64,000 bases of DNA from an uncultured delta proteobacterium (GCA_963746475.1 CAVVBB010000002.1:785079-849078), one strand, 5' to 3'. Shown: positions 16,630 to 39,826, numbered from the stretch's first letter. Numbers and translations are program-made. Notes: a model not told the origin generated them from the letters alone.

Positions 16630-17175
16630 TTGTACAGAAGGGCGTTCACGAAGCTCTCGATGCTATCCGGTGCCGCTGTGTTGATCCTGCCAGCGTGCGA
16701 CGCCGCGCTGCCGAGTGCGGCTTCTGTCTTGTCGCCCGAGGAGCGAACGCTTTTCGAACGGTTCGCCGAGGCGTACCTGCCCACCGAGGGCACGCCGCTC
16801 AAGCCCCTTTCCGAAGTGCCGATCACCGACAACATCAACCGTGTTCTCGGAACGCTCGATGAAGCAACGCTGCACGAGGTGCACCTGGGGCTAAAGCTGT
16901 TCAACTACGGGTCGATTTTCATCGGCCTGCATTTGTCGCGGTTCGTCAACCTCGATGTTCCGGAGCGCCTCGCGTACCTGCAGCGCTGGGTGAATGGCGC
17001 CGAGACGCAGCGCGCGATTGCCAGCCTGCTCCGAAAGCTCGTGTGCGTAGGTTATTGGCAGGACATCGAAGCGGCCAGAGCCATTGGCTACCATGGACCC
17101 GTCTCCGTGGACGCCAAGCTGGCGAGTCTTGGAAACGCGCCCCTGCCGCAGACACCCGCGGAGGGGCCGGGGTGA
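16630..17175 (+). CDS. Tat-signal small subunit (gluconate 2-dehydrogenase subunit 3-like) of the downstream GMC oxidoreductase
   Basis: A TTG start is preceded by AGGGAGG. The twin-arginine motif YRRAFTKL is followed by a hydrophobic stretch. Its stop is 6 nt from the GMC gene. Confidence 0.55.
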   Translation: MYRRAFTKLSMLSGAAVLILPACDAALPSAASVLSPEERTLFERFAEAYLPTEGTPLKPLSEVPITDNINRVLGTLDEATLHEVHLGLKLFNYGSIFIGLHLSRFVNLDVPERLAYLQRWVNGAETQRAIASLLRKLVCVGYWQDIEAARAIGYHGPVSVDAKLASLGNAPLPQTPAEGPG

Positions 17176-17181
17176 GCAGCG

Positions 17182-20667: not shown

Positions 20668-22197
20668 ATGGCTCGCTTAGACCTCGTTCCACTCAACGAC
20701 ACATTGATCGGTGAAAAGTACCGACTCGGAGCTGTGCTTGGCTCGGGTGGGGTCGCTACCGTGTATCAGGCGACACACCTGTGGACGGAGCGCGAGGTGG
20801 CGGTGAAGCTCCTCGATCCGACGCTGCCGCACTTCGATCGGGTACGCCAAGGGTTCTTGAGGGAGGCGCGCGCGACGGTTCAGCTCAAGCATCCCAATGT
20901 CGTCGACGTCCTCGACATGGGCGAAGACGATTGGGAGACCGTCTACATGGTGATGGAGCTCCTGCACGGGCCGACCTTACGCGATGTGCTCGATGAACGA
21001 GGGCGCCTCTCGGAAAGAGAAACGCTGCAGGTGCTGCTGCCCTTGGTCGACGCGCTCGAGAAAGCCAACGAGCTCGGGATCGTGCATCGCGATTTCAAGC
21101 CGGAGAACATCGTGCTCACCTACGATGCGAACGGCGTCATGACGCCCAAGCTGCTGGATTTCGGCATCGCGGAGATTCTCCAAGACGCTCGGTCGCAAGG
21201 CCTGGCCAGCACGGCTGATGTGATCATGGGAACGCCGCAGTACATGGCTCCCGAGCAAGCTTGCGATGACCGCGAAAGACTCGGTCCACACACCGATGTG
21301 TGGGGAGTGGGCGTGGTTTGGTACGAGTGTCTCACGGGCCGCGTGCCTTTTGTCGGCGAGAGCGTCGAGGAAGTCCTGCGTGCGGTGTGCAGCGCTCCGA
21401 TTGACTTCACACCGGTGCCTAAGGCCTATGCGCCACTGCTGCGTGACGCTCTGTGTCAACTGCCCGAGCGGCGCATTCGTTCGTTTTCGGAGCTCAAGGC
21501 GCGCATCCGGCACTTCGACCTCGGGCTTGCCGAGCCCGCCGTGTCACCGAAAGAACAGACCCTGTCTTTGTCGCTCTCAGCCGATCTCGAGCCAGACTCG
21601 AGCCAAGGGACGTTGATCGGTCTTGCGCCGAGCGAGCCGCCGCCGGTTGTCCACAGTGCGATGCGCCCCGTGGCGCGGCGCAACGAGGCCGAACTGACCG
21701 ACGGGGATTTTCCGGAGCATCTTCCCGTTCGCTCGAGCCGCAAAGCGACCCTTGCCGCGGTGGCCGTGGCCTTACTCGTCGCCGTGGGTGCATGGTGGGC
21801 CGTCCGCAGACCCGCTGAAGAGCCTGGCCTCATTGCGGAGCCGCTGGCCGCAGAGCCTGAAGCGCTGGCCGCAGAGCCCAAAGCGCGGCCTGAGGAAGCG
21901 GAGGCGGACCCCGAGGGAGCCCCCACGTTAGCGACAGCGCCGGCGGAAGCACGGGCGGAAGTTGTCGCGGAAGCGCCTGCGAACCTCGAAGCGGAGGCCC
22001 CGGCGCAGGCCGATGTGGAGCCCGCTGAGCTGCCCCAGCCGGTCGAAGCTGTCGCCGTCGCTCAGGAGCCCAAGGCCGCCAAGCCACCGAGGCGTCGCAG
22101 AGCGCGCCCAAGGCCCGCTCCTGAGCCTCAGCAAGAATCTGCGTCGTCGGATGGCTCGCAGTACAAAAAGCCGCCAGAGTTGGTCGGGCAATGGTGA
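20668..22197 (+). CDS. Hanks-type Ser/Thr protein kinase with a TM segment and an Ala/Pro/Glu-rich C-terminal tail
   Basis: LGSGGVATVY, VAVKLL, HRDFKPENIVL, DFGIA and GTPQYMAPEQ are present, followed by a TM segment (ATLAAVAVALLVAVGAWWAV). Confidence 0.9.
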   Translation: MARLDLVPLNDTLIGEKYRLGAVLGSGGVATVYQATHLWTEREVAVKLLDPTLPHFDRVRQGFLREARATVQLKHPNVVDVLDMGEDDWETVYMVMELLHGPTLRDVLDERGRLSERETLQVLLPLVDALEKANELGIVHRDFKPENIVLTYDANGVMTPKLLDFGIAEILQDARSQGLASTADVIMGTPQYMAPEQACDDRERLGPHTDVWGVGVVWYECLTGRVPFVGESVEEVLRAVCSAPIDFTPVPKAYAPLLRDALCQLPERRIRSFSELKARIRHFDLGLAEPAVSPKEQTLSLSLSADLEPDSSQGTLIGLAPSEPPPVVHSAMRPVARRNEAELTDGDFPEHLPVRSSRKATLAAVAVALLVAVGAWWAVRRPAEEPGLIAEPLAAEPEALAAEPKARPEEAEADPEGAPTLATAPAEARAEVVAEAPANLEAEAPAQADVEPAELPQPVEAVAVAQEPKAAKPPRRRRARPRPAPEPQQESASSDGSQYKKPPELVGQW

Positions 22198-23042
22198 GGA
22201 CACTCTGCATCGTCGTGGCGTTTTCGTTGGCATCTGGCTTCCTTTGGGCGCCCGAGCCATCGACGGCGGTTGCACAAGAAGCAGCTCCGACGGAGCGTGC
22301 GCGACATCTATTTGAAGAAGGACTGGCACTTGCGGAGTCGGACCGTTGGGCCGAAGCACTTTCCGCATTTCGCCGTTCCGCGAAGCTCGTTGCTCGGCCC
22401 AGCACCTCTTACAACATCGCCAACGCCTTGTACCGGCTCGAACGGCCCGTCGAAGGGCTCGAGCAACTCGACCGGTATGACGCCATGCCCGAAGTTCGGC
22501 GCAGCGACTCGGCTCGCGCGCGCGGCGCGGCCCTTCGTACCTTGCTGCAGCGTGCGGTGGCCGAAGCGCGTCTGACGATCACGCCGTCCGAAGCGGGGCT
22601 TTTCGTCGACGGGCGCCCCCTGGAGGGTACGGGCGCCAAGCGAGACATTCGGCTGAACCCAGGCTCCCATTCGATCCGAGTCGCCCACGCCGGCTACGAG
22701 TCGGCTCGGCGTGAGATCGAAGTCTCGCGCGGAAGTCGGCAGAGCTACAGCATCGAATTGACGCCAAAGACCCCGGACGCGACCGTTGCCATCGCGGTGC
22801 CAGCTTCGAGCATTTCGCGTGGACCGGACATGTTGAGCGGCGGCTCCGCGCCTCAGGCGAACAAGGACGACCCAAAACCCTTCGTGAAGCGGCCTGGGTT
22901 CTGGGTGATGATTGGCGCGATTGCCGCCGTCGGAATCGGAACGGGTGTCGCCGTCGCCTTGGGCGCCAAGGACGGCTCGACTCAGTGCGGAACGACAGGC
23001 AGCTGCGCAACGACCCAGGGCCTGTCCGTGGCGTCGTTTTAA
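22191..23042 (+). CDS. Signal-peptide protein with a TPR-like N-terminus, a PEGA domain and a C-terminal TM anchor
   Basis: The PEGA-type segment is LTITPSEAGLFVDGRPLEGTG...LNPGSHSIRVAHAGYESARREIEVSRG. The TM segment is FWVMIGAIAAVGIGTGVAVAL. The start overlaps the kinase stop by 7 nt. Confidence 0.7.
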   Translation: MVRTLCIVVAFSLASGFLWAPEPSTAVAQEAAPTERARHLFEEGLALAESDRWAEALSAFRRSAKLVARPSTSYNIANALYRLERPVEGLEQLDRYDAMPEVRRSDSARARGAALRTLLQRAVAEARLTITPSEAGLFVDGRPLEGTGAKRDIRLNPGSHSIRVAHAGYESARREIEVSRGSRQSYSIELTPKTPDATVAIAVPASSISRGPDMLSGGSAPQANKDDPKPFVKRPGFWVMIGAIAAVGIGTGVAVALGAKDGSTQCGTTGSCATTQGLSVASF

Positions 23043-23574: not shown

Positions 23575-25014
23575 ATGCGCGCTGTAGGGGGGCGCTTGTT
23601 GCTTTTGTCGCGTATCGCTTGGATGAGCTTGTTCTTTGGCGCGGTCGTCTCGGGCTGCGGGGACGCTTCCGTTGAAATGCACGAGGGGCCAGGGCTCGGC
23701 GGGACAGGAGGCGATGACGGTTCGGGTGGCTCGGGCGGAGTCGTAGGCCCCGCGAACGTGAGCTTCTCGGTCACGCTCATGAACGAGACGGGACTGCTCC
23801 GCGACCAGCTCGTGATGTACGCCGACGCCGATGGCAAGCATTTCAGTACGACGCTCACGAGCAAAGGTGGCGTCGCCCGCTTCACGAACGTGCCGGCGGG
23901 TGGATTCATCACCGCGCAGCTGATCAACCGCAGCGACCTGCTCAGCCTGCAAACGGTGGCCGGCATGCAGAATGGCGATTCGATCACGCTCGTCGCCGAG
24001 GAGGCGTTCGGCGTGCCAGCGACCTGGCCGCTCGGACGTGCGGCCATCACCGTGTCGAGCCTGCCGGAAACCGCGACGCAATACCTCGTCTACCACCCGA
24101 GTCGCCTCTCGCGCCTCCGGACGGAGGTGCCCTTCACGTCCGAGGCCTCGTTTTCGACGCAACTCATTGGACCGAGCGGCACCTACAACGCCCTGGCCGT
24201 GGCCGCGCTCGCCGATCGCGGCATCGCGTTCGGCTTTGCGACCGACCTCGCCCTGCAGGGCCAAATTCCAGAGGTCTCGGTCACGGGGAACATCGAGAGT
24301 TGGGAGCCCCCTAGTGGAACCGTCCGCGCCGAGCTCCGCAACCTCTCGAAGGTTGAGCTCCCGGCCGTGATCCTCGTTGGCGGCTATCGCGACACGCAGC
24401 AGTTCTTGACCGAGGCGCAGAGCCAAAACCTGCCGCCCGGTGTCACGATGAACACCGAGCTGGCGGTGAACTCCAACTTTCACGACCGAGCCGTCGCCAC
24501 GTTCGTGCTCGACGTGTTCGGCGACCCCGTGGCATTGGCGAACGAGCGCTTCGTGGCCGGCACGGCCATTCCAGACGACGGAGGCACGGAGGTCATCTGG
24601 ACCTCCACCGACGATTTTCTGCCGAGCCTGCCCGCGGCGGGCTACGATTTTTCCGAACGGAGCTCGGCCTACTACTGGACCCGGACCCCATTGTGCGATG
24701 GCGTGCCGCCAAACGTTTCGGTGCTCGAGCTGATCGGCAAAAAGGAGTCGAAGTCCTACACCTGGCAGATGCTCGGCCCTTATCGCGACGAGCTTCGCAT
24801 GCCGGAGCTCGACCCGGACTATGCCGAGCTCCTGTTTCCTTCCGATCTGGAAATGGAGCACTGGACCCTCGAAGCGCGCGCTTACCCGGAGGGCAGCATC
24901 GACTCCGTGAGGCGCTCGAGCCCGGCACTGCTCCCGCCGCTCACCTGGCTAGGGCGACAGGCCGGCGCCGGAGCCATCTGCGTATCCCGAGCTCGAACGG
25001 GCGGGCCGCGGTAA
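23575..25014 (+). CDS. Hypothetical lipoprotein (Gly-rich linker, no recognisable domain)
   Basis: The signal/lipobox is LFFGAVVSGCGD. Third codon positions are consistently G/C-rich. Confidence 0.65.
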   Translation: MRAVGGRLLLLSRIAWMSLFFGAVVSGCGDASVEMHEGPGLGGTGGDDGSGGSGGVVGPANVSFSVTLMNETGLLRDQLVMYADADGKHFSTTLTSKGGVARFTNVPAGGFITAQLINRSDLLSLQTVAGMQNGDSITLVAEEAFGVPATWPLGRAAITVSSLPETATQYLVYHPSRLSRLRTEVPFTSEASFSTQLIGPSGTYNALAVAALADRGIAFGFATDLALQGQIPEVSVTGNIESWEPPSGTVRAELRNLSKVELPAVILVGGYRDTQQFLTEAQSQNLPPGVTMNTELAVNSNFHDRAVATFVLDVFGDPVALANERFVAGTAIPDDGGTEVIWTSTDDFLPSLPAAGYDFSERSSAYYWTRTPLCDGVPPNVSVLELIGKKESKSYTWQMLGPYRDELRMPELDPDYAELLFPSDLEMEHWTLEARAYPEGSIDSVRRSSPALLPPLTWLGRQAGAGAICVSRARTGGPR

Positions 25015-25498: not shown

Positions 25499-28400
25499 AT
25501 GTTGAAGCAACGTGCTTTTCAGTGGGCGGGCTTGATTGCCTTTGGCGTTGCGGCAGCGACGGCCGTTCCGGTCAGTGCGGTGTCGGACCGCAACTTGTAT
25601 GAACGTGGCCAGATGCCTCCCGGGGCAGACACGTCCGCGGCCATGGGTCATGTCAACGCGATGATGCAGGAGCGTTTCGCGCAGGCCGGTGGCCCCGCCG
25701 ATCGTACCGTGACGGCGTTCGCAGAAGATATCGTGAAGACGCTGCCATTGATTCCCGGTGCTACGGTCATCACCTATCCGGTGGTCACGCCCGCCGGTAA
25801 TCTGTTGCAGGGCACTGGGCGAGGCATCGGATTTTCGCACATCACGGTCCACGAACCAGTCACCGGAAGGATCATCTGGGCGACGCCTCGTTACATCGGA
25901 CCCCTTGACTATGCGACTCAGCGAACTGTCGGGCCGGGCGCGTATCTCGGCGGGTACCCGATTGTCATCAACGACCCGAGCAGTGCGGCCTACAACTGGG
26001 CCGCCATCAGCGATGGTTACAACGTTTGGTCCTTCGAAGCCGATACGGGTGCCGTGAATTGGATTGCCTCCCAGGGCGACTGGGCGCCCGGTCCGCAGCG
26101 CATCAGGGAAGAACCCCTGCGTCAGAGGAGCATGTCCAACGACATTCCGATTGGCGTGCAGCCCCTTCCCGGGTCTCGAGCCCCTTCGGGCGAGCCGCTC
26201 GTGGGCTCTTTGTTCACCCGCGGTAACTTCGCCTATGTCGACGCTTCCTCTGGTGAGCTCATCATCTTGCAGAACGGCGACGTGGGTAACATCGCTCGCG
26301 GCTACCAAGCTCCGATCCTCTATCTGATCATCGACCTGCTCTGCTTCCCTGGCGGCCAGCTTTCGCTCGAGTTCAAGGACTGGTGCTCCGCGTTCGTGTA
26401 CACGCGTTACTTCTCGGCAAACACCGTCATGGCGGACCCCATCCGTAACCGCGTCACGGTCACCTACGCCGGTGACGGCCAAACCTTCGACCGGTTCATG
26501 ACCTGGGAGTTCAACACGGACGAAAATGGCCTGGTTCCGGCGGATGCGGACCTCGCCGACGGTGAGTCGCCGGCCATGTCGCTCGCATGGTCGACCAACT
26601 TCGGCCTCAACAGCGGCGCCACGCCGACCTGGTCGGACTCGGGTGCGGTCATCTTTGGCGTCGACGGCGCGGGCATCACGAATGCCTTCAACGCGAACGA
26701 CGGCACGGTCATCGTTTCATCGACCGGTGGCGGCGCAGGCTTCTCGCCGAGTACCGACCATAATGACCAGCTCGTCATTTGCTCTCCGGAGGCGGGTCTC
26801 GCCTACGTCAGCTCCAAGGACGGTCGATTCATCTGGCAGAACGACGGCGGCGACCTGGGCGTCCAGCACCTTCCCGTGACGCCCGATTCACCTCTGCTCG
26901 TCAACGGACGACCGAAAGCAGAGTGCGTCGGCTTCCCGGCGACACACCCGGACGTCTTCAACGCGCAGTTCGTGATGGGCTATCCCGTCACGCTCTTCGA
27001 GGCCCTCGCGGCGCTCGGTATTCCGCTTCCCAGCACTGTCACCAGCGCGGCCGTGGCGGACTTCTCCGCGAATGCCCGCACCGGCGAGACCGTCGAGACG
27101 CTGCATCGCTCGATCTACAACGGCAGCGGCGAGGCGAGCACCGGTATGCTGGACAGCGGTCGTGCACTGTCGGGTCGCGTGGATGCTGTGGCATCGATCG
27201 CTGCGGGCATCCTGAACCTTCTCTTGCCGAGGCGGTTCGACATTCCGCCGGCTGAGGGCGGCTTCGTGATTATTGAGCCAGACAGCTTCCGCGAATCCAT
27301 CCAGAACCAGTTCAAGGGCGCGGAGATCTACTGTAACGAAATCGTCAATGGCCTGGTCATTCCTGGAGACGCCGGTGGCGAAAGCATTCCGGCACTGGCC
27401 TCGGCCGACTTCGAGCTGCCGAGAGGCGAAAACGAGGAACGACTGCTGCAGCTCAGCGTCAACAAGATGGGGTACATCAACTCCATCATGAAGAACTCGA
27501 TTCCACCTCGCATGGATTCGGCGTCCAGCCGCAATCCCTCTGAGCTCAACGACCTGGGCCGAGCGGGTGTGGACGCGTTCCGCAATGCCATCATCGCGAA
27601 CACCACCGCGGCACGTGACCTGATGCTCGGCGGCGACGCCACGTATCCGGCCGGCTGCGGTTCGGACGAGTTTTGCAACTGGGGTCGCTCTCACGAGCCA
27701 ACCGATGCCGAGCGCGAGCAAGCCTCGGCAGCGATGGAGAACGCTTGCCGAGCGGCGCGGAGCGCTCAGATTCTGTTGAGCTTGCCCGTGTCCCCTCCGA
27801 GGAGTCCCCCGGAACCGGAAATTCCCGCGAGCTCATGCATTGTCGAATACGACCTGGACTGGACCCTCCAGTCCAGCGACTCTCCTGGTGGAATCGTCGA
27901 CGGGTTCACGACAGACCTTCCCGGCAGCATGATCCTCAAGTACGCCGACGACGGCGCGGGCAACATCCAGCCGGGTCGAGTCGAGATGATGTACATCTGG
28001 GTGGCCGCGAACATCCTTTTTCAAAAGCCGGGCGCTCCCACTGTGACCATCCAAGGTCACGGGTTCTCGCCAAGCTGCAATGGAGAGGCTGACCCGGACT
28101 GGTCTGACCCCGCGAGCATCCCAGAGGTCTGCGAGTACAACGGCGATCTCGAGACCCAGAACCCCATCGCCATCGGTACGCTAAATGAGTCTGGCGCGGT
28201 AATTGACTGGCAGGGCTGTGCAGTGCCTAGCAGCTATTGGGCGGAGGACAGCGCAAGCTTCACGATCGCGGATGCCGAGACTGCCAGCGGCCGTGGCTGT
28301 GTCGCTCTCAAGGTCGGGAACACTGGAGCCGATGCAGAGATCCCGACCGAGCAAGGGCAGTTCAGTCTGTACGCGGACGTCAACTGCGACGGCTCGAAGA

Positions 28401-28681
28401 TCGTCTGCGGCGCGGCCGGAGTGGAGCCAGGCTCGAACACTATCGCGCTGCAGTGGCCGCAAGCGCTCATCAATGGAACCGCTGCGAGCGGTCAGAACGG
28501 CTTGATCGTGGCGGAAGACGCTCAGAAGTCGACCGTCTTCTTTCCGGGCAGCAGCACGGACGGAAGCGAGAGCGCCCAGGGTGGCTATCAGTCCTTCAAC
28601 ATCCCGAACCCGTTTCCGGCCCGCACCTGGCTAGGCGCGAGCGGCGTTCGCCTCGAGGGCGGATTCACCACCTGCAACTAA
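25499..28681 (+). CDS. Giant secreted protein A (1060 aa); N-terminal roughly 700-aa module paralogous to protein B, unique roughly 285-aa Cys-containing C-terminus
   Basis: GAGAGGGAG lies upstream of ATG 25499. The signal peptide is MLKQRAFQWAGLIAFGVAAATAVPVSA. Long colinear identity blocks are shared with 29086..32907, for example DRNLxERGQMPP, [54 protein letters not shown] and [22 protein letters not shown]. Confidence 0.75.
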   Translation: MLKQRAFQWAGLIAFGVAAATAVPVSAVSDRNLYERGQMPPGADTSAAMGHVNAMMQERFAQAGGPADRTVTAFAEDIVKTLPLIPGATVITYPVVTPAGNLLQGTGRGIGFSHITVHEPVTGRIIWATPRYIGPLDYATQRTVGPGAYLGGYPIVINDPSSAAYNWAAISDGYNVWSFEADTGAVNWIASQGDWAPGPQRIREEPLRQRSMSNDIPIGVQPLPGSRAPSGEPLVGSLFTRGNFAYVDASSGELIILQNGDVGNIARGYQAPILYLIIDLLCFPGGQLSLEFKDWCSAFVYTRYFSANTVMADPIRNRVTVTYAGDGQTFDRFMTWEFNTDENGLVPADADLADGESPAMSLAWSTNFGLNSGATPTWSDSGAVIFGVDGAGITNAFNANDGTVIVSSTGGGAGFSPSTDHNDQLVICSPEAGLAYVSSKDGRFIWQNDGGDLGVQHLPVTPDSPLLVNGRPKAECVGFPATHPDVFNAQFVMGYPVTLFEALAALGIPLPSTVTSAAVADFSANARTGETVETLHRSIYNGSGEASTGMLDSGRALSGRVDAVASIAAGILNLLLPRRFDIPPAEGGFVIIEPDSFRESIQNQFKGAEIYCNEIVNGLVIPGDAGGESIPALASADFELPRGENEERLLQLSVNKMGYINSIMKNSIPPRMDSASSRNPSELNDLGRAGVDAFRNAIIANTTAARDLMLGGDATYPAGCGSDEFCNWGRSHEPTDAEREQASAAMENACRAARSAQILLSLPVSPPRSPPEPEIPASSCIVEYDLDWTLQSSDSPGGIVDGFTTDLPGSMILKYADDGAGNIQPGRVEMMYIWVAANILFQKPGAPTVTIQGHGFSPSCNGEADPDWSDPASIPEVCEYNGDLETQNPIAIGTLNESGAVIDWQGCAVPSSYWAEDSASFTIADAETASGRGCVALKVGNTGADAEIPTEQGQFSLYADVNCDGSKIVCGAAGVEPGSNTIALQWPQALINGTAASGQNGLIVAEDAQKSTVFFPGSSTDGSESAQGGYQSFNIPNPFPARTWLGASGVRLEGGFTTCN

Positions 28682-28903
28682 CGATCGACGCGATCCTGCC
28701 GTGCGTAGTCGCGGTGCCCGGTCGCAACGGACGACGCGATTTCTTCCATGTACGCATGGGTGTGGCGAGATCGACAGTCTCGTCGCTGGCGTTGCTCGTC
28801 GGGACGTTGCTGGCTTGGCTGCGTGCTGCGCGAGGCTGGGCCGTCCCAGCGGAAAGCTGTTCTGTCGCAGGGCACGCGCTCCTTGTTTCCTCCGTCCGGG
28901 TCG

Positions 28904-28909
28904 TTGACA
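28904..28909 (+). promoter_or_regulatory. Possible -35 hexamer (TTGACA) upstream of pqqA
   Basis: TTGACA lies 57 nt upstream of the pqqA ATG. Only a weak -10-like element (TAGAGC) follows. This is speculative. Confidence 0.2.
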
Positions 28910-28965
28910 GATTCTCTGGGCGGGTAGAGCCTAGCTGGTGGATGGTGGACTCCTGGAGGCTAGCG

Positions 28966-29079
28966 ATGAAGATCAACCGACGCCGTCAAAACAAACCGGC
29001 CGTGAAACGGTGGAGCAAGCCTGCATATCAGGACCTTCGTCTCGGCTTCGAGTACACTCTGTACGTGATGACTCGGTAG
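28966..29079 (+). CDS. pqqA: PQQ precursor peptide PqqA (37 aa; alternative GTG start 29002 gives 25 aa)
   Basis: The translation is MKINRRRQNKPAVKRWSKPAYQDLRLGFEYTLYVMTR. The C-terminal 23 aa match canonical PqqA (compare P. aeruginosa [23 protein letters not shown]), including the Glu-x3-Tyr pair. GGAGG lies 6 nt upstream of the ATG. pqqBCDE lie downstream. Confidence 0.85.
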   Translation: MKINRRRQNKPAVKRWSKPAYQDLRLGFEYTLYVMTR

Positions 29080-29085
29080 GGCGTC

Positions 29086-32000
29086 ATGAGGAGCTCGCGG
29101 CTTTCGCTCTGCCTCCTGATTCTGGTGACCCTCGCGCTATGGACCGACCGCGCCTCGGCTGTCACCGACCGCAATCTGACCGAGCGAGGTCAGATGCCTC
29201 CCTTCGCCGACACGGTGTACCCCGTCATTCACAGCAACGCCCTGCAGCAGGAGAAGTACGCGCAGGGTGGCGGACCGGCGGACCGCAGCGTGCAGACTTT
29301 CGCCGAGGGCATCGTCAAGACTCTGCCGCTGATTCCCGGCGCCTCCCTCGCCATCGGACCTTCCGTTCTTCCCAACGGAAACTTCGTGGCGGCCACGGGC
29401 CGCGGCATCGGCTTCAGTAGCCTCACCGTGCACGATCCGTTGACCGGTGCCATCGTCTGGATGGCGCCTCGGTACCTCGGCCCTGCTGACTATGCGCTAC
29501 GAAGGACGGTCGGCCCCTGGGCCTACGCCAGCGTTCCGGCGATCGATGCACAGGGTGGCATCTACATCGACGACGCTTTCAACTTCTGGAAGTTCGATGC
29601 GGACGGCGGCGTGCTCTGGGTCACCGACCACAGCGCGCTACCCGCGGGGCCCCAGCGGCTGAGCGAGGAGCCGCTCCGTCCGCGGAACATGAGCAACGAC
29701 TTCATTCCGACGGCGACCTTCGCGCCGGATGCGATTCGCTCTGCCGAGGGGAACAACCTCTGGGGCGGCGTCTGGTCGCGGGGTAGTGTCGTCTGGCTCG
29801 ATGCGGAGACGGGGGAGCCGGTCATCGTCAAAAGCGCCGGCCTCGCTACGTCCTTTCAGTCACCGATTCTGTTTCTCATCATCGACTTGCTCTGCTTCCC
29901 GGGCGGCCAGGTGGCGCTGGAGATCAAGGACGTCTGCTCGGCGGCCATCTACACGCGCTACTTTTCCTCCAACACCACGGCCATCGATCCGGTCCGTAAC
30001 CGCTTCTCGTTCACCTACGCCGGCGATGGTGCGAGCGTCGATCAGCTCAAGACCTGGGAGTTCGTGACCGAGGCGGGCTCGGGGCAGGCCGGGCGGGTTA
30101 CGTCGGTGGATACGGATTCCGATGGCTTCGGCGACTCTGGCGTCAGGGAGGTCTGGGCACAGCCGTTTGGTGTGAACACGGGCGCCACGCCAACGATTTC
30201 CGACACCTTGTCTGTGATTTACGATGTCGACGGGAGCGGCGTCAGCTTCGCGTTCGACGCGGATGACGGAACCATCCTTTCGAGCTCGAGCGGGGGCGGC
30301 ACTGGTTTCTCCCCGAGCACGGACCATGAGGATCAGCTCGAGGTCTGCTCTGCGGCGTTGGGACTGGCGAAGCTGGACGGATTGACCGGGCAGGTCCTTT
30401 GGCAGAACCCGGCGGAAGGCCTGGGGTTGGAGCACCTGCCGGTCGTGCCGGACGCGCCGCTGGCGGCCTCGGGAAGGCCCGCGGCGCAGTGCTCCGGCTT
30501 CGCTTCCGTGCATCGCGACGTCGTGACGGGCCAGTTCGTGCTGGGCTATCCCGTTCGGCTCCTAGAGGCTTTGGCAGCGCTCGGTATTCCGCTTCCGAGC
30601 ACGGTCACCAGTAGAGCCACGGTGGACTTCTCCGTGGACAACCGGACCGGAGCGAGCGTCGATGCCAAACTTCGCTCGCTGTACAATGGAAGTGGGGAGG
30701 CGCAGGTCATCCCGCAGGACAGCGGCCGCTTCACCTCGACCCGGGTAGACGCGGTGGCGGCGATCAACGCTGGTATCCTGAACCTGCTCCTGCCCCGGCG
30801 CTTCGACGTTCCGCCGGCCGAAGGCGGCTTCGTGATCTCGGAGCCCTACAGTTATCGGCAATCGGTGCTGAGCCAGCTCGACACGGCCGCCATGTACTGC
30901 GCGGACGTGCTGGACCTCCTTCCCAACACGGGCACGACCCCGGCCGATGAGCAGGCACGACAGATTGCCGTCAACAAGTCCCGGTACCTCAATTCGATCG
31001 TGAAGAGCTCGCTGCTCGGCCGAGTGGAAAGTGGCAACCGCCGACAGCCGCCGGAGTTCGGTGACGTCGAAGTCGACCAAATCGAGATCGCCGTCGACGA
31101 GATCATCGCGACCACGGACCTCGCCATCGAGCTTCTCTTGCAGGCCGGACCGAACGCGCCTGACCAGGAGTCGCAGGATCTCGCGAGGCAGGCCATCGAT
31201 CAGAGCTGCCGGAGCATCGCGAGCATTCGGGAGAAGATCGACGTGCCAGTCCCCCCGCCGGGTATGACTCCGAACTGTAGGAACGCGCCGAGGAAGGTGG
31301 AGCCGACCGCCATTCTGTCGAACGGCTGGGGCTATGATCTTGCGAACACGCGTGCACGGGATGCCTCTGAGACGACCCTGTCCGGCGACAACATCGGCCA
31401 GCTCGAGCTGAAGTGGGCCTTCGTGTTTCCCTTCGAGCCGGAGCGGCGCGCGCCGCCGATCGTGACTGAAAATGCGGTGTTCGCTGGCAGCATGGGCGGT
31501 GGCGTGTACGCGATCGATCGCGTGACTGGATGCGAGATTTGGCGCGCGAAGACTCGCGGTCTGGTGCGCACTGGGCTCGTCATGGGGCCGGGCCCAGACG
31601 GCGAACGACTCATCTACTTTGGCACTATCGGCGGCGAGGTCCGGGCCATCCGGGAGCGAGATGGCAAACTGGTTTGGCGGACACAGATCCTGTCGAACCG
31701 TGAAGTCCCCGTGTCGGAAGGTTTTCTCTACCGGATCGCCAACCTGCTGAGCTTTCACCGCGCCGACCCCACGATGCTGACCGGAACCCCGAGCCTGCAC
31801 GACGGGGTCCTCTACGTGCCGGTGTCCACGCGTGAGTCGTTCGGGGCGGCGGTGCCGATCCGGCCTTGCTGTTTTGCGTCCGGAAGCGTCGTCGCGCTGA
31901 ACGCCCAGACGGGGGAGAGCCTCTGGAGGACGGATACGATCGACGAAAGGGCGACTTTCAATTTGTCGACGGGGCAGTGGGCGCCGGCTGGCGCCGGCGT

Positions 32001-32907
32001 ATGGAACAGTCCGACGATCGATCCGGACCGGCGCCTGCTCTACTTCGGCACGGCCCAGAATTACTCCCGACCGACTTCGGATGGCACGAACTCGGTCTTC
32101 GCCCTCGACCTCGATACCGGTGATGTGCGTTGGCGTTTCAAGGGGGAGTTCGACGACGCCTGGAACGTCGCCTGTGCTCTGCCCCTTCCAGCCTTGCTCG
32201 GGCGGAACTGCCCGCCAGAGGAAGAGCTCAACCGTGACTTCGACTTCGGGTCTTCACCGATTCTCGCGAACCTACCCGGTGGCGGGCAGCTGCTTCTAGC
32301 AGGGAACAAGGGTGGCCTCGTGCACGGATTGGATCCGGACACGGGAACGCTGGTTTGGCGCACCCGCGTCTCGGACGGTGGGACGCTGGGTGGGGTGCAT
32401 TTCGGAATGGCTTATGACGGCTCTTCCGTGTACGCCGCCACGACCGATGCCCTGCTCACCATTCCCGGGACCGACGATCTCGGCGACCTGTTGCAGACCA
32501 TCTTCCGGCTGGACTTTTCCTTCACTCCCACACCGACCGGCCGGCCGGGTATCTACGCGCTCGACGCAGCCACGGGCGCCGAGCAATTCGTCGCGAAAAG
32601 CACCTTCATCAACGAGGATGGCGAAGAGCAGCAGTCTCCATACTCCGCCGCGCCTTCGATCATCCCAGGGGCCTTGCTCGCCGGGTCCTTGGACGGCTTC
32701 GTACGCGCGTTTTCGAGCACGGATGGACGCCTCCTCTGGGAGTTCGATACGGCCCAGGCTTTCATCAGCCCCGACGGGCGCAGCGGGCAAGGTGGTTCGA
32801 TCGCTGTCGGTGGTCCCATCGTCGCCGGAGACATGATGTTCATTGGATCGGGCTCGCTTCTCGAAGGGGAGTCCGGCAACGTGCTGTTTGCCTTCGGTTT
32901 GCCCTAA
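29086..32907 (+). CDS. Giant secreted protein B (1273 aa): unassigned roughly 700-aa module plus a C-terminal PQQ-dependent dehydrogenase-type beta-propeller
   Basis: The signal peptide is [25 protein letters not shown]. The N-terminus is paralogous to protein A. From about aa 735 the sequence reads [33 protein letters not shown], then repeated xGxVxAxDxxTGxxxW blades, with a vicinal Cys pair ([22 protein letters not shown]) as in quinoprotein dehydrogenases. It is tightly packed between pqqA (6-nt gap) and pqqB (26-nt gap). Confidence 0.8.
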
Positions 32908-32933: not shown

Positions 32934-33848
32934 ATGCGGGTACGCGTTCTCGGGTCTGGAGCGGGCGGCGGCTTTCCTCAGTGGAACTGCAACTGCAGCA
33001 ACTGCGCTGGCCTCCGCGCCGGGTCGTTGAAGGCACGAGCCCGTACCCAGTCCTCCATCGCGGTCAGCGCCGACGGGGAGGCATGGGTCCTGTTCAACGC
33101 CTCTCCTGACATTAGGCAGCAGCTGCTGGAGTTTCCCTCGGCGCAGCCTGCGCGCGCCGTGCGAGACACGGCAATCTGTGGGGTCGTGCTGATGGATGCT
33201 CACATCGATCACACCGCAGGGCTCCTGATCCTGCGTGAGGGTGAGCCGCTGGACGTGTATTGCACGGAACCCGTGTACGAGGATCTCACGACGAGTCACC
33301 CGGTGCTCGTCCTGCTGGAGCACTTCTGCGGGGTGCATCGTCGGCGCATTCCTCTGGGCCCCGAAGAGAGTTTTGCAGTGGAAGGGGCGCCCGGCCTGCG
33401 GTTCACAGCCTGGCCGCTGCAGAGCAAGCCTCCGCCGTTTTCTCCTCACCGTAACCACCCCCGAGCGGGGGACAACATCGGGATGCTCATCGAGGACGAG
33501 CAAAGCGGGGGTAGCCTGTTTTATGCGCCGGGGCTGGCCCGTGTCGACGAAGCGCTTCGACGTCGATTCTCCGAGTCCGACTGCCTGCTCGTCGATGGAA
33601 CCTTCTGGAGCGAGGACGAAATGCTGCGTCACGGAGTGGGTGAGAAGCGAGCCGGAGACATGGGACATCTGCCGCAATCCGGGGAGGGCGGCATGATGAG
33701 CGTCCTCGCTCCGCTTAAGGACACTCGCCGGGTGCTCATTCACATCAACAACACCAACCCCATTCTGGATGAGGCCTCTGCCGAACGGGCGGAGCTGCGG
33801 GCCGCAGGGATCGAGGTCGCTCACGATGGAATGGAGTTCGAGCTGTGA
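32934..33848 (+). CDS. pqqB: PQQ biosynthesis protein B (metallo-beta-lactamase fold)
   Basis: [28 protein letters not shown] is the canonical PqqB N-terminus. Its operon position also fits. Confidence 0.9.
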
Positions 33849-34558
33849 TGAGCGACCCGCCTTGGAGCGAAGCCGAGTTCGTCGAGCGCCTGAGGGCCAA
33901 GGGCGAAGGCTACCATCTCAATCATCCCTTCGAGCGGATGCTTCGGGAAGGCCGCTTGAATGAAGCGCAGCTGCGCGGCTGGGTTGCCAATCGCTACCTC
34001 TACCAGATCAGGATTCCCCTCAAAGACGCGGCGATTTTGTCCAATTGTCCGGACCGAGAGGTTCGTCGCAAGTGGATCGTGCGCATCCTGGAGCAGGACG
34101 GAAGACAGGCCGGGGAAGGCGGCAATGAAGCCTGGATACGTCTCGGTGAGGCCTGCGGGCTGAGTCGAGAGGAAATGCTGAGCGAACAGCACGTGCTCCC
34201 CGGCGTACGTTTTGCGGTCGACGCCTATGTCCACTTTGCGAGAACGCGTCCCTGGCAAGAGGCGGTCTGCGCCTCGCTCACCGAGCTCTTCGCCCCGGGT
34301 GCGCATCAGGCTCGCCTGGAGGCTTTCCCCAGGCACTACCCCTGGGTGGACCCAGAAGCCTTGGCCTACTTTCGGAGAAGGCTGAGTGAGGCACCCAGGG
34401 ACGTGAACCACGGCCTGGAAGTCACGCTGCGGCACTTTCGTGTCCGTGCGCAGCAGGAGCGAGCGCTGCAGATCCTTCAGTTCAAGCTCGACGTGCTCTG
34501 GTCGATGCTGGACGCCATCTACCATGCTTACGTCACGGAGTCCGGGGGCGGGGAATGA
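33845..34558 (+). CDS. pqqC: Pyrroloquinoline-quinone synthase PqqC
   Basis: [51 protein letters not shown] matches PqqC. The start (GTG 33845 or ATG 33848) overlaps the pqqB stop. Confidence 0.9.
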
Positions 34559-34839
34559 GCGCGCGCTGCGAGCCCGCTGACCGCATCGTCATGGCGCCCC
34601 ACTTTCGTCTGCAGTGGGAGGAGGCGCAGCAGCGTCACGTGCTTCTCTACCCGGAGGGCATGGTCCGCCTGAACGACTCCGCGGCCGAGGTTTTGGTGCT
34701 GTGTGCAAACGGAACCTCGTTCGGCAGTCTCCTAGAGACCATGAGGGCCCGATACCCGGTGGACGAGATCGAGGGCGACGTGCGAGAGTTCTTGCAAGAG
34801 GCAGCGTCCAATGGCTGGGTCCGCATCGAACGAAGCTAG
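34555..34839 (+). CDS. pqqD: PQQ biosynthesis peptide chaperone PqqD
   Basis: 94 aa, with [34 protein letters not shown] typical of PqqD. There is an ATGA overlap with pqqC. Confidence 0.85.
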
Positions 34840-35935
34840 TTCGCCCCTGTGGCTGCTCGCAGAGCTGACCTACCGCTGCCCGCTGCAGTGTTACTACTGC
34901 TCGAACCCCGTCGACTTCGCGAGGCACCGCGAGGAGCTGAGCACTGCGCAGTGGCTAAGCGTCCTTCGTGAAGCTCGCGAATTGGGCGTCGTGCAGCTCG
35001 GGTTCTCGGGCGGGGAGCCCTTGCTTCGTCAAGACTTGGAGATGCTCGTGACCGAGGCCAACGGGCTCGGCTACTACACGAACCTCATCACTTCGGGCAT
35101 GGGCATGAACGAGGCCCGCCTGGCCCGCTTGAAAGAGGCGGGTCTCGATCACATCCAGCTCAGCTTCCAGGCAAGCCGCGCCGAGCTAAACGACTCCATC
35201 GGGGGCGCAAAGAGCTTCGAGCACAAGCGGCAGCTCGCAGGGCTCATCAAGGCACATGGCTACGCGATGGTCCTCAACTTCGTGCTGCACCGAGAAAACA
35301 TCGATTCGGTGGAGGAGATGCTGGAGCTCGCGGAAGCCCTCGGCGCGGACTACGTGGAACTGGCGAACACACAGTACGGCGGCTGGGCGCAGCTCAACCG
35401 AAAGCTCCTTTTGCCTAGCGCCTCCCAGCTCGAGCGTGCGGAAGCCGTGACACGGGCGTTCCGCGAGCGGGCCGGTGAGGATATGCGCATCTTCTACGTG
35501 GTCTCCGACTACTTCGAGGGCAGACCCAAGCCTTGCGCGGGAGGCTGGGGTCGGCTGTTCATGCAAGTGACCCCCGATGGCACCGTGCTGCCCTGTCATG
35601 GTGCGCGGGACCTTCCCGGGCTCAGCTTTCCCAAGGCCCAGGAAAACGACCTGCGCTTCATCTGGGAGGAATCGCCGCTGTTCAAACGCTTCCGTGGGCA
35701 GGACTGGATGAAAGAGCCCTGCCGAACTTGTCCGAAGCGCGCCGAAGACTTTGGAGGCTGTCGCTGTCAGGCATTCCTGCTCACTGGCGACCCGGAGAAC
35801 GCCGACCCCGTCTGCGCGCTGTCTCCGCATCACGCGCTGATTTCGGAGGCCATTACAGCGGCGGAGGGGGCGAACCGATCCGAGCTGCTTCCGATTCTTC
35901 GAAACGCACGCAACTCGCGTTCACAGACTGACTGA
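34811..35935 (+). CDS. pqqE: PQQ biosynthesis radical-SAM enzyme PqqE
   Basis: The radical-SAM cluster motif is LTYRCPLQCYYCSNP. The C-terminal SPASM-type cysteines are CAGGWG...CHG...CRTCPKRAEDFGGCRCQ. Confidence 0.9.
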   Translation: MAGSASNEASSPLWLLAELTYRCPLQCYYCSNPVDFARHREELSTAQWLSVLREARELGVVQLGFSGGEPLLRQDLEMLVTEANGLGYYTNLITSGMGMNEARLARLKEAGLDHIQLSFQASRAELNDSIGGAKSFEHKRQLAGLIKAHGYAMVLNFVLHRENIDSVEEMLELAEALGADYVELANTQYGGWAQLNRKLLLPSASQLERAEAVTRAFRERAGEDMRIFYVVSDYFEGRPKPCAGGWGRLFMQVTPDGTVLPCHGARDLPGLSFPKAQENDLRFIWEESPLFKRFRGQDWMKEPCRTCPKRAEDFGGCRCQAFLLTGDPENADPVCALSPHHALISEAITAAEGANRSELLPILRNARNSRSQTD

Positions 35936-36601: not shown

Positions 36602-36913
36602 TCAGGGGCATTCTTCGGTGAAGCAGTGACAGACGCAGTAGTACGTGTCCGGCAGTGGCATGGATGGATCGAAATCGCCGCCGCAACTGCCGTACGAGTC
36701 GGTTCCGCTCGTTCGGCAGAACGTCCGACATGGACCGTCGCAAAAAGTTGGATTCTCAAAGTCCTGCGGGTCGCATTCCACATCAAGCATGCAGTTGTCG
36801 GCTCCCGGAAAGCCGCCTGCGCCGTCCACGACTTCGGTGTCGTCCGCTGGGCACCCTGAGACAGCGAGCACTAGGCTGATGATGATTAGGGTGGTGGGCC
36901 ACAGCGCTTTCAT
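36602..36913 (-). CDS. Small Cys-rich lipoprotein (hypothetical)
   Basis: The signal/lipobox is MKALWPTTLIIISLVLAVSGC. The mature roughly 80 aa contain 11 Cys. Confidence 0.5.
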   Translation of the reverse strand: MKALWPTTLIIISLVLAVSGCPADDTEVVDGAGGFPGADNCMLDVECDPQDFENPTFCDGPCRTFCRTSGTDSYGSCGGDFDPSMPLPDTYYCVCHCFTEECP

Positions 36914-37104
36914 GATCGCGAGGCTAAATCGAAGTCGATCTCGTCGTCCATTGAAAAACATCATGGACGGGTGAGGTCGCGTCCTGAGCCGCTGCCAGAC
37001 GCTCGAGGAACGGTGATGGTACGAGAGCGCGACCGAGAGCTCTCAGTCGAACAGACTATCGAGCCAACCGAGCCAAGGTCTGAAAAAACGAGCGGAAGTG
37101 GCTT

Positions 37105-38451
37105 TCACCCATCTAGGTCCTCGAGGCTGGGCGCTACCGGATAGGAAAGGCGCTCGGGGACATCGGCTTGGTTCGCTTCGCCCGACCGCGTCAGCGCATG
37201 TCTGAGAACGACCGGCATGAGCACTTCGTCGAACGCGACCACCGCGAAGAGAAGTGCGCTAGCCGGCTCACCGAAGTCCGGAAAGGCTTTGCGGACGAGC
37301 AATGCTAGGGCCAAAGCGAGCCCCGCTTGCGGGAGCAGTCCGGTCCAGGCCCAACGACGAACCTCGATCGGCGCGTTGACCCCCAAAGTGCTGACGGCGC
37401 TGGTCAGCCAGAAGCTCGCGGCACGCACAGCGACCAGAATGAGCGCAACGGCCCCGACCTGAAGCATCAAAGGCAAGCGAATGCTCGCGCCCGCCACGGC
37501 AAAGAACACCAAGTAAACGGGCAATGACGCCCATTCGAGCTTTCGAATGAGCGGAAAGCTCTCGGTCTCGGGGAAGTTTGCGATGCATACGCCCGCCGAG
37601 AGCATGGTGATGAGCGGATCCAATGCGACCCGCGGGCCGATTTCGGCGACGACGATGCACCATAGAAGAACAAACAAGGAAATGCGCTGACGAACGTGCC
37701 TCAAGTAGAGCGCGAGCACGAAACCTATGGCCGCCCCAACGCACATGGATCCAAACAGTTCCCAGAGGACGGCGAGGATCGTATCGAGAGCGTTCGCGAC
37801 GCCACCCGTGGTCGCACGCGCCGCCGCAGAAGTGGCGGCGAAGAGCACGATGACGACGAGATCTCCGATGACCACGGTCCCCAAGATAGTGCGGCTCAGA
37901 GGCCCGTCAGCTTTCGTCTCGCCGAGCAGTGCCATCACGGCCGCAGGGGACTGCGCGGTCAATACCACGCCTAGCATCAGGCAGATCCAGCCCAGGGCCA
38001 AGCCCTCAAAACCCCTCAAGAAAGAGGTCATGGGCGCCGTCCAGAAGAGCGCCGCAGCGAGCGCGATGGCTGTGATCGGCACGGCGCCGAGGCTGAGCCT
38101 CAGCACGACCCGCAACACGGGACGCAAACGTTCCAAGCTCAGCTCTCCACCAGCGGTGAGAGCAATGAGGCAAATCGCCACCCCATTGACCAGGTCGAGC
38201 TGATGGGCCGCCGTTTCGGAAACGAGGCCCAGAGCATCGGGCCCAGTAATCATGCCAGCCAGGAGATAGCCGACGAGCCGGGGAAGGCCAATTTGCGCGA
38301 GCAAGTCACCAGTAAAGAATGCTGCGAGGAGTAGAAAGCCGAAGGACAAAGCAGTGCCCGCTATCCCGTGCACGTCGGCACCCCCGGGCAGTAGACTTTG
38401 AGCCGCTTGGAGCAGCAGACAGAGGAACAGGAGAATCAACAGGCTCCTCAT
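37105..38451 (-). CDS. Cation:proton antiporter (Na+/H+ exchanger family, CPA2-like)
   Basis: Starts at MRSLLILLF, with an ATGA overlap with the upstream gene's stop. GLPRLVGYLLAGMITGPDALGL plus about 12 TM segments are typical of the sodium/hydrogen exchanger family. It is the C-terminal 448 aa of the 883-aa track ORF. Confidence 0.75.
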   Translation of the reverse strand: MRSLLILLFLCLLLQAAQSLLPGGADVHGIAGTALSFGFLLLAAFFTGDLLAQIGLPRLVGYLLAGMITGPDALGLVSETAAHQLDLVNGVAICLIALTAGGELSLERLRPVLRVVLRLSLGAVPITAIALAAALFWTAPMTSFLRGFEGLALGWICLMLGVVLTAQSPAAVMALLGETKADGPLSRTILGTVVIGDLVVIVLFAATSAAARATTGGVANALDTILAVLWELFGSMCVGAAIGFVLALYLRHVRQRISLFVLLWCIVVAEIGPRVALDPLITMLSAGVCIANFPETESFPLIRKLEWASLPVYLVFFAVAGASIRLPLMLQVGAVALILVAVRAASFWLTSAVSTLGVNAPIEVRRWAWTGLLPQAGLALALALLVRKAFPDFGEPASALLFAVVAFDEVLMPVVLRHALTRSGEANQADVPERLSYPVAPSLEDLDG

Positions 38452-39720
38452 CGGTCGACTCCCCGCCGATGCAGGACCTCGGCCAAGATCGCCCCTCCGA
38501 GCACTGCGGTCACAATCCAAGAAATGGCTCGACCGCGGTACATGCCTTGTGCGCTGATAACGATGGCGATCGAGACGATGCTCACTGGAGGAGCGAGCAA
38601 GAACATGCGACGTGAGGATGTTGAGGATGTGTCCCCGTGCTGGCGAACCAGCCATTCGGCAAAGAAGTTCCCGAGGCCCCGGCTTACGACAAAGACGGGA
38701 ACCAGGACCCAGCCGCGCCATCCGGTGATGTCCCACAGAGCCCCGACGATCGTCAGGAACAGGTAGTAAATCGGTCGCTCGAGTTGGGTGAGGAGCCTCC
38801 ACAAGCGCTGCTTGTGCGCCCCTGGCAAGTTGACGAGCAGGGCCCCTACGATGAAGCAAATCACCAGCGGGGAGAGCAGCAGAAACCCGGCGATCCCCGC
38901 GGCAAATGCGACGGAGCCCAGGCACAGCGCGAAAAACTGAGGCCCCTGCCGAGACCCTGCGACAATCGCGTGTGTCAGAAGGCCGACCGCGGTGCCGACC
39001 CCGAGCGTCAGCAGCAACCAAACGGTACCAGGGAGTTTCCAGACAAACTCGACCCACAGCGGCCTGAAGAAGGCCCCGAGGAGAGCGAGCCCCGCCACTG
39101 CAACGATTCTCGTCCATAAACTCGAGACGTCGGGCGAGCTCGCGCTCGGAACCCTTCGGGTTCCACAGCCCGGGTCGGTCCGCGACGCTGGAAGCTGTAA
39201 TGGCTCCCGCCGTCGCCAACACGAGGGCGTCACGCAAGAACTTCCCATCGGCCCAACTCTCACCGAGGGCGAGCATGACGGCGCTCCCCGCAAGTCCGAC
39301 AGTGGCGAACGGAATGAGGGAGCGCAACGCCACGTCGAGCGCCGTTCCACGTGGTGCGCGCTCGAGCACGCGAGCATCGAATTGAAATCCGATGATCAGG
39401 CCCAGCCACCCTAAGGCGAAGTGCACGAGAGGCGTAAGGTCTCGCAGAACTTTGTCGTCGAGGATGCCGACGCGAGGCTGGCGCGCGATGAGTCCAAGAA
39501 TGATGAAAGGAAGGCCGCCTGTAATAATCTGGCGTACGCCGATACGCTCTTCGAGTCGACGCACGGCTGGGTGACCACCGGCCCACCCCAGAGTCATCAG
39601 AAGCAATAGCCCCAAGACGGTCTTGAGCACGAGCCCGGTGTCGTGCGATTTCTCCTGGATGCCGCTGGCCGACGCGCCCTGAGCACTCATGAAGAGTACA
39701 AAAGCCAAACCACACCGCAT
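38448..39720 (-). pseudogene. Second cation:proton antiporter paralogue with a reading-frame break near 39110-39125
   Basis: The N-terminal roughly 200 aa are TM-rich (...GLPFIILGLIARQPRVGIL...LATAGAITASS...ELARRLEFMDE) and lie in the frame of the 883-aa ORF. The TM-rich continuation (IVAVAGLALLGAFFRPLWVEF...LHRRGVDR*) lies in the frame of track ORF 38448..39377. The first frame downstream of the break is Arg/Pro-rich nonsense. Confidence 0.65.
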
Positions 39721-39826
39721 CGGCCATTGTACATCGGATCGGGCAGCCCCACTCACGTTCCTTGCACCGGTTTCATCGCGATGGCTGTCTCATGGAGGAG
39801 ACACTGCAACTGGGCACCCTAGGGAA

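Follow-up and report, generated by a model that had tools for sequence, protein, structure and literature searches.

What are two giant exported proteins with a common N-terminal half doing beside the genes for pyrroloquinoline quinone (PQQ) synthesis, when only one of them ends in a PQQ dehydrogenase-type propeller? The question is raised by a 64,000-nt stretch of DNA from an uncultured delta proteobacterium (GCA_963746475.1, CAVVBB010000002.1:785079-849078), referred to here as the window, which encodes the two proteins, A and B, on the same strand. The reading favoured here is that their shared N-terminal module is probably a non-catalytic carrier or docking unit, and that B is a polyvinyl alcohol dehydrogenase (PVADH)-like enzyme that lacks haem and is produced along with its cofactor.

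Proteins A and B and the pqq operon

The two genes and their parts were delimited as follows:

25499-28681, +, open reading frame (ORF) of protein A, ATG start
25499..25579, +, signal peptide of A, 27 aa, ...AVPVSA↓VSDRN, read by eye
25580..27817, +, propeller-plus-stalk module of A, aa 28-773, 48% identical to the B module
27818..28681, +, C-terminal Cys-containing domain of A and stop codon, about 287 aa (aa about 774-1060), of no recognised family
29086-32907, +, ORF of protein B
29086..29160, +, signal peptide of B, 25 aa, ...DRASA↓VTDRN, read by eye
29161..30849, +, beta-propeller part of the B module, aa 26-588, from an AlphaFold model and Foldseek
30850..31245, +, four-helix stalk of the B module, aa 589-720, from AlphaFold helices; the stalk is kept in free-standing relatives
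31246..31320, +, Pro-rich linker of B, from the sequence and a pLDDT below 50
31321..32907, +, PVADH-type PQQ beta-propeller of B and stop codon, aa 746-1273, matching Pfam PQQ and PQQ_2
31867..31872, +, vicinal Cys-Cys of B, aa 928-929, a PVADH-clade signature invariant in four aligned sequences
32236..32244, +, D-F-D motif of B (DF = aa 1051-1052), just before an inner strand; candidate catalytic Asp

BLASTP aligned A and B with 364/752 identities (48%, E = 0); the alignment opens with the first mature residues and extends to approximately residue 771 of A and 729 of B, where Pro-rich linkers begin. With a sequence similarity so far beyond chance, the two proteins are paralogues, and colinear ones, as the initial annotation of this DNA had described them. 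All ten sequence blocks that it listed as shared fall within the alignment, but the letters given as SPIL read APIL in A. The GC content at third codon positions (GC3) of the A and B genes is 0.76 and 0.80, respectively, which is like that of neighbouring genes. For A, the ATG at 25499 is the preferred start, as a signal-peptide-like segment follows it and homologues begin at the equivalent Met; a longer, GTG-initiated ORF from 25253 was rejected because it contributes no hydrophobic leader. The signal peptides were called by eye from AxA-type sites (VSA↓V in A and ASA↓V in B), in agreement with the Sec-type leaders initially reported for both proteins, and the mature N-terminus, V(S/T)DR(N/G), is kept throughout the family. 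Inspection by eye identified no C-terminal sorting signal in A or B. Both proteins are predicted to be exported across the inner membrane; an extracellular location, as initially proposed, would go beyond this prediction.

The genes for PQQ synthesis were identified by their matches to NCBIfam models:

28966..29079, +, pqqA, 37 aa, ...WSKPAYQDLRLGFEYTLYVMTR, TIGR02107, 30.9 bits (cut-off 20)
32934..33848, +, pqqB, TIGR02108, 419 bits (cut-off 245)
33845..34558, +, pqqC, TIGR02111, 339 bits (cut-off 240)
34555..34839, +, pqqD, TIGR03859, 83 bits (cut-off 46)
34811..35935, +, pqqE, TIGR02109, 526 bits (cut-off 381)

All five exceed the NCBIfam equivalog cut-offs and are contiguous on one strand, the gene order being A, then pqqA-B-pqqB-C-D-E, with overlaps or gaps of no more than 27 nt within the operon. 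Since only 7 nt separate the stop codon of pqqA from the start of B, and 27 nt the stop codon of B from the start of pqqB, B lies inside the pqq operon. A is directly upstream of pqqA, and with a gap of 284 nt before that gene it lies beside the operon and not inside it; the initial placement of both genes within the pqq operon region therefore holds for B, but A merely adjoins it. A 4.5-kb contig from another sample (L079) encodes the final 481 residues of a 97% identical B, followed by pqqBCDE in the same order, and the ratio of nonsynonymous to synonymous substitution (dN/dS) between the two copies of B is 0.16, indicating that B is under purifying selection. The spacing suggests that B is co-transcribed with the pqq genes and, given the position of its gene between pqqA and pqqB, production of the apo-enzyme most likely accompanies that of its cofactor. 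A limited check of the literature, covering titles and abstracts, found no description of a quinoprotein gene between pqqA and pqqB.

The C-terminal part of B (aa about 746-1273) matches Pfam PQQ (PF01011) with 76.7 bits (cut-off 26.7) and PQQ_2 with 108 bits, which confirms the quinoprotein propeller with a vicinal Cys pair that had been recognised there. Along 94% of its length, this domain has 32% identity (E 1e-81) to a PQQ protein encoded on a plasmid of Sphingopyxis sp. 113P3 (L080:3491-5503), the gene for which has an oxidised polyvinyl alcohol (PVA) hydrolase upstream (3wla, 632 bits) and a c-type cytochrome downstream. As these neighbours match the pva operon that has been reported on the megaplasmid of Sphingopyxis sp. 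113P3 (PMC12909831), the 113P3 protein is taken to be PVADH. The domain of B is also 36% identical, over its whole length, to the quinohaemoprotein P0119, which consists of a cytochrome c and a PQQ domain. An alignment of four sequences (A10: B, the 113P3 PVADH, P0119 and an EbN1 protein) has invariant columns at C193, C194, C295, N306, C307, P308, D316 and F317. B shares with PVADH (pvaA, of 113P3 and of Pseudomonas sp. VM15C) a CC after a conserved Glu, a C...NCP loop and a DF...SPIL segment, the clade motif there being DF...(S/A)P.

The resemblance to type-I PQQ alcohol and methanol dehydrogenases (PedH/ExaA/MxaF) is more limited. B has an eight-bladed PQQ propeller in common with them, and the best PDB sequence match of the domain is PedH (6zcv, E 1e-13), but B scores only 78-85 bits on TIGR03075, the cut-off of which is 480. 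Moreover, the CC of type-I enzymes is found in the blade-2 loop, which in B reads LVRTGLVMG, whereas the CC of B is in a blade-3 insertion after the conserved Glu, and in the HMMER alignment the canonical type-I W-D falls on A-W-N in B. The catalytic Asp of B is more likely to be that of the invariant D-F, which just precedes the next inner strand. At this motif PVADH has D-F-S, whereas B and P0119 have D-F-D, a difference that recalls the lanthanide-versus-calcium signature of PedH/PedE and XoxF/MxaF and is treated here as a lead only. B would be expected to bind PQQ; an assignment of B to the 'empty' TIGR04528-type quinoproteins was rejected, as it scores 58-63 bits against a cut-off of 650 and has a full-length match to a real PQQ enzyme.

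Judged by its sequence, the C-terminal domain of B is thus a PVADH-type quinoprotein without haem. PVADH, P0119 and the EbN1 protein all begin with a CxxCH-containing cytochrome c domain, whereas B has a module of about 710 aa in that position and no CxxCH anywhere in the protein. A further difference from PVADH is that B is encoded within a pqq operon, and no homologue of the oxidised-PVA hydrolase or of a small cytochrome c was found in the window. With no cytochrome c attached to a PVADH-type domain, it must be asked where the electrons go.

At 41027-45958 (+), 5 kb downstream of pqqE, the window encodes an exported protein of 1643 aa. It combines a domain of GSDH type (PQQ sugar dehydrogenase-like) with PA14, He_PIG and numerous Dicty_CTDC Cys-rich repeats, and has a CxxCH motif at each of aa 643 and 724. 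This is a second giant putative quinoprotein or quinohaemoprotein, and a possible electron partner for B.

The C-terminal domain of A (aa about 774-1060) has no match in Pfam, NCBIfam or the PDB sequences and is shared only with P0005, which is orthologous to A and 76% identical to that protein along its full length, consistent with the initial description of an unrelated Cys-containing region. A would carry a putative disulfide-containing domain of no recognised family where B has its dehydrogenase.

The propeller-plus-stalk module and its family

The unit shared by A and B comprises 710-750 residues, and sequence models alone hardly reach it. The A module scores 20.1 bits on Pfam PQQ_2, below the gathering cut-off of 27.6 bits; B has no PQQ_2 match outside its C-terminal propeller; and a profile search of the PDB sequences gave weak matches to BamB (E of about 0.007). 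An alignment of eight close-family sequences yielded an AlphaFold model with a pLDDT of only 41.7, and an alignment of 38 sequences that included distant relatives was needed to obtain a model of the B module with a pLDDT of 83.9 and a pTM of 0.89 (md68e5d921ac6). In this model beta strands occupy positions 77-564 and are followed by helices at 567-588, 596-628, 640-662 and 671-695, matching the divergent propeller and subsequent helical region that had been surmised from the sequence. The best Foldseek match in the PDB is Rv3035 (E 9e-14, target TM score 0.75-0.78), followed by Cake8, a designed eight-blade propeller, and BamB (target TM score 0.6-0.7 for BamB), while PQQ alcohol and methanol dehydrogenases score lower (0.4-0.5). 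There were 537 PDB matches at E <1e-3, and the top 50 were nearly all eight-bladed propellers of BamB or PQQ type. According to the model, with the blades counted from DSSP secondary structure and the Foldseek matches, the module is a very divergent BamB/PQQ_2-type beta-propeller of about eight blades with a four-helix stalk. The propeller would be closed by the conserved N-terminal segment, and the stalk would follow it.

Rv3035, which has been reported to form part of a periplasmic heterodimer with FecB (PMC13041763), and BamB resemble the module in their W...H/R.D..N-type opening motif, in the 'TG...W' style of their repeats and in being exported. There are also differences. Neither A nor B reaches the Pfam threshold for the BamB type (PF13360) with its module, their sequence identity to the solved structures is just 8-14%, and in size the module is double that of BamB, having large insertions and the C-terminal four-helix stalk; in this lineage it also bears additional C-terminal domains. 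BamB proper differs further in that the mature VS/TDRN end of A and B has no Cys and hence no lipobox. TIGR03300 (BamB, cut-off 285) has no match on the modules, its 84-90 bits on B falling within the PQQ domain, and within the window the module was not seen to be linked to bam genes.

Close relatives of the module are very rare. Among 5.8 billion clusters, two word-indexed searches together with a cluster look-up returned nine proteins or fragments (P0001, P0002, P0003, P0004, which is A, P0005, P0006, P0007, P0008 and P0128) in addition to B, and nothing belonging to this close family was found in scans of the genome-contig and metagenome-contig collections. P0007, a third paralogue, is encoded on the same 1.04-Mb contig as A and B, outside the window; a 2.1-Mb contig encodes P0002 and P0005, and a 627-kb contig P0001 and P0128. 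B itself (entry P0129) belongs to a 90%-identity cluster represented by a 36-aa fragment, which accounts for its absence from the clustered-protein matches. The module is N-terminal in every case, and it is the C-terminal part that differs:

B: PQQ propeller
A and P0005: Cys-containing domain of no recognised family, about 287 aa
P0001, P0007, P0008 and P0128: long Dicty_CTDC-type Cys-rich repeats and a shared tail
P0002: PAP_fibrillin, 39 bits (cut-off 22)
L082: Cys-rich repeats and a PETase-like alpha/beta hydrolase, 49.7 bits (cut-off 28)

In L082 (10001-14003), a frameshift near position 12000 shortens P0003 to 675 aa; the +1 frame carries on through the helical stalk, the Cys-rich repeats and the PETase-like hydrolase, so that the true product would have about 1330 aa. 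The modules of P0001 and P0002 are almost identical and their C-termini are different, which indicates that the C-terminal swaps are recent.

More distant relatives are widespread. About 60 further proteins, each of roughly 550-800 aa, came from an exhaustive hidden Markov model (HMM) search against 1.84 billion representatives, and Pfam PQQ_2 was matched (E <1e-3) by 37 of the 42 that were scanned; a third word-indexed search, with a broad profile, gave generic PQQ_2 propellers and no family members. These relatives align with the module from end to end, with the cleavage site (consensus VTDRGLTE.G) as one limit, the last C-terminal helix as the other and the propeller in between, which indicates that the module is a complete, free-standing protein in other organisms. 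Such free-standing relatives (P0012-P0075 and L009-L078) differ from A and B in being single-domain proteins of 520-780 aa; they are 20-27% identical to B, score 170-780 bits on the family HMM and are annotated, if at all, as 'BamB' or 'hypothetical protein'. The module is therefore not without an assignable family, as was initially held: the structural match to Rv3035, the PQQ_2 matches of its distant relatives and the existence of free-standing members all place it. Among 115 members, the positions conserved in at least 75% are almost all G, W, P or D, a pattern typical of a repeat structure.

The distribution of the family was examined with a hand-made degenerate DNA motif for W...HRD.RNSD..P in a collection of species-representative genomes. 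Of 70 loci found, 66 carried true members, two were cut by contig ends and two (L040 and L051, the latter being the sole isolate genome) were rejected as chance matches; all 66 true members are from metagenome-assembled genomes (MAGs). The members belong to Gammaproteobacteria (among them many Pseudomonadales, Halieaceae and Spongiibacteraceae), Myxococcota, 'Deltaproteobacteria', Planctomycetota, Chloroflexota, Poribacteria, Spirochaetia, Kiritimatiellia, Verrucomicrobia, Bacteroidales, Acidobacteriota, Gemmatimonadota and, in a few cases, Alphaproteobacteria, with the free-standing relatives found mostly in marine Gammaproteobacteria, Chloroflexota, Planctomycetota, Spirochaetia, Bacteroidales and others. 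On plasmids, the family was not found.

Analysis of the gene neighbourhoods separated the module from PQQ synthesis. The genes pqqB, C or D were absent from all 79 related loci of other organisms (78 loci of 2-22 kb and L082), and the only other retrieved locus with pqq genes was L079, with its near-identical copy of the operon in the window. The linkage of the module to pqq genes that had been proposed in the initial annotation was not borne out by these loci, nor by the paralogous modules fused to non-PQQ domains. Homologues elsewhere are thus unlinked to pqq genes as far as the module is concerned, but this does not apply to protein B as a whole; of the PQQ-linked extracellular system that had been suggested, B stands as a quinoprotein within the pqq operon, but the module does not belong to it and neither, so far, does A. 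A conserved operon partner was also rejected, as a Pfam census of 189 flanking ORFs and an all-against-all clustering identified none that was shared across lineages; the flanks were loosely enriched in oxidoreductases and hydrolases of catabolism. In L001 and L008, two family members stand in tandem ahead of a PDZ protein; such pairs, being seen in these two loci only, were rejected as a rule for the family. In L006/L007 (4384-19456), a free-standing member is found in a same-strand run with a 659-aa protein of no recognised family, an SDR and a GMC oxidoreductase, flanked by AraC and TetR regulators, Ldi (linalool dehydratase-isomerase family) and a FadL-type Toluene_X porin; this locus looks like one for the catabolism of hydrophobic alcohols.

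Possible roles of the module

A and B may be understood as lineage-specific multidomain members of a widespread, uncharacterised Sec-exported family, the core of which stands alone in most organisms and would serve as an N-terminal carrier in this organism and a few close relatives. A Pro-rich linker would connect this carrier to interchangeable 'working' domains. In B, the module takes the place of the cytochrome c domain of PVADH, and the working domain would be the PVADH-type PQQ-dependent dehydrogenase. The module itself is most likely non-catalytic and, by analogy with BamB and Rv3035, could dock or scaffold, holding the attached domain on a partner in the envelope or on the surface of a substrate. 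Several points weigh against this proposal. The significant Foldseek matches also include enzymes, namely tetrathionate hydrolase and PQQ dehydrogenases, and the conserved polar residues H26, S88, N273, R283 and S386 (B-module numbering) could form a site, even if most of them fall in motifs typical of PQQ_2 repeats. Two of the partner domains are of polymer-active enzyme types, which would suit the targeting of a substrate no less than docking to a protein. Both the number of blades and the way in which the stalk packs are read from secondary structure and structural matches, the placement of the metal and PQQ ligands of B is uncertain, and its co-transcription with the pqq genes is deduced from spacing.

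The main rival, which is considered unlikely, is that the module is a substrate-targeting domain resembling a carbohydrate-binding module (CBM), which binds a polymer or a hydrophobic surface and brings different catalytic domains to the same insoluble substrate. The PVADH-like and PETase/cutinase-like nature of the catalytic partners would fit this role, as would the fibrillin-like domain of P0002, which is thought to bind lipids, and the frequent position of free-standing relatives among genes of catabolism (acyl-CoA dehydrogenases, alkyl sulfatases, P450, SDR, GMC oxidoreductase, a FadL-type porin). However, no binding site was recognised in the module, the conserved residues of which look structural, its nearest solved folds are protein-protein scaffolds, and the neighbourhoods are inconsistent, with no gene family recurring across lineages. 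A catalytic module and an obligatory pairing of A and B are less likely. It appears doubtful that the A and B modules (or that of P0007) form a hetero-oligomer joining the C-terminal domain of A with the dehydrogenase of B, since most free-standing members are single genes; still, A and B are neighbours on the same strand, tandem family pairs occur at two unrelated loci, and the long helical-bundle stalk of the model could mediate oligomerisation. The least probable of these readings, and one that seems distinctly improbable, is that the module is a PQQ- or metal-dependent catalytic propeller and that A and B are consecutive enzymes of a PQQ-linked extracytoplasmic pathway. It would draw on the remote relationship of the module to PQQ propellers, the position of A and B on either side of pqqA and the second giant putative quinoprotein downstream of pqqE. 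Opposed to it are the 79 loci without pqqB, C or D, the fusion of the same type of module to non-PQQ domains, a fold that is nearer to the non-enzymatic BamB and Rv3035 than to PQQ dehydrogenases, the lack of a visible conserved set of acidic or Asn ligands and the best PQQ_2 score of A, which stays under the cut-off.

Returning to the module as a non-catalytic carrier, a bolder version may be put forward as speculation: in marine Myxococcota-like bacteria, the carrier could display PVADH-like and PETase-like domains on the envelope or on insoluble substrates, with B as a haem-less enzyme co-transcribed with pqqA-E that passes its electrons to a partner still to be named. The D-F-D motif would then raise the possibility of lanthanide dependence of B, and the modules of A and B might pair.

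Both halves of B fall in known superfamilies, and the protein represents an unusual architecture and no new kind of system; current understanding is not overturned by these findings. What is new is a distinct and widespread propeller-plus-stalk family, mis-annotated as BamB, for which neither Pfam nor NCBIfam offers a dedicated model, the use of this unit as a swappable N-terminal module and a PVADH-type domain that exists without a cytochrome c domain. The present analysis is the first structural and evolutionary description of this family, which is widespread in uncultured marine and sediment bacteria. Among the domains that the module bears are homologues of PVADH and of PETase-like hydrolases, both of them enzyme types of interest for degrading polymers and, if the module is a targeting or anchoring device, it could serve for enzyme display.

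Other genes of the window

Three further genes precede A:

20668-22197, +, Ser/Thr kinase, upstream of A
22191-23042, +, TPR/PEGA protein, upstream of A
23575-25014, +, 479-aa predicted lipoprotein with the lipobox VSGC, matching neither Pfam nor NCBIfam, immediately upstream of A

Elsewhere, the 883-aa ORF at 37105-39756 (-) matches Na_H_Exchanger in just its C-terminal half and has an Arg-rich middle part that looks out of frame, so it may represent two genes or a frame error; AT skew is unusually high over 36-40 kb. At 16630-18738 (+), a 181-aa protein with no family match and a hydrophobic leader ending in Cys is encoded immediately upstream of a GMC oxidoreductase. Finally, a small, 120-aa Cys-rich predicted lipoprotein is encoded at 36602-36964 (-), between pqqE and the cation-exchanger genes.

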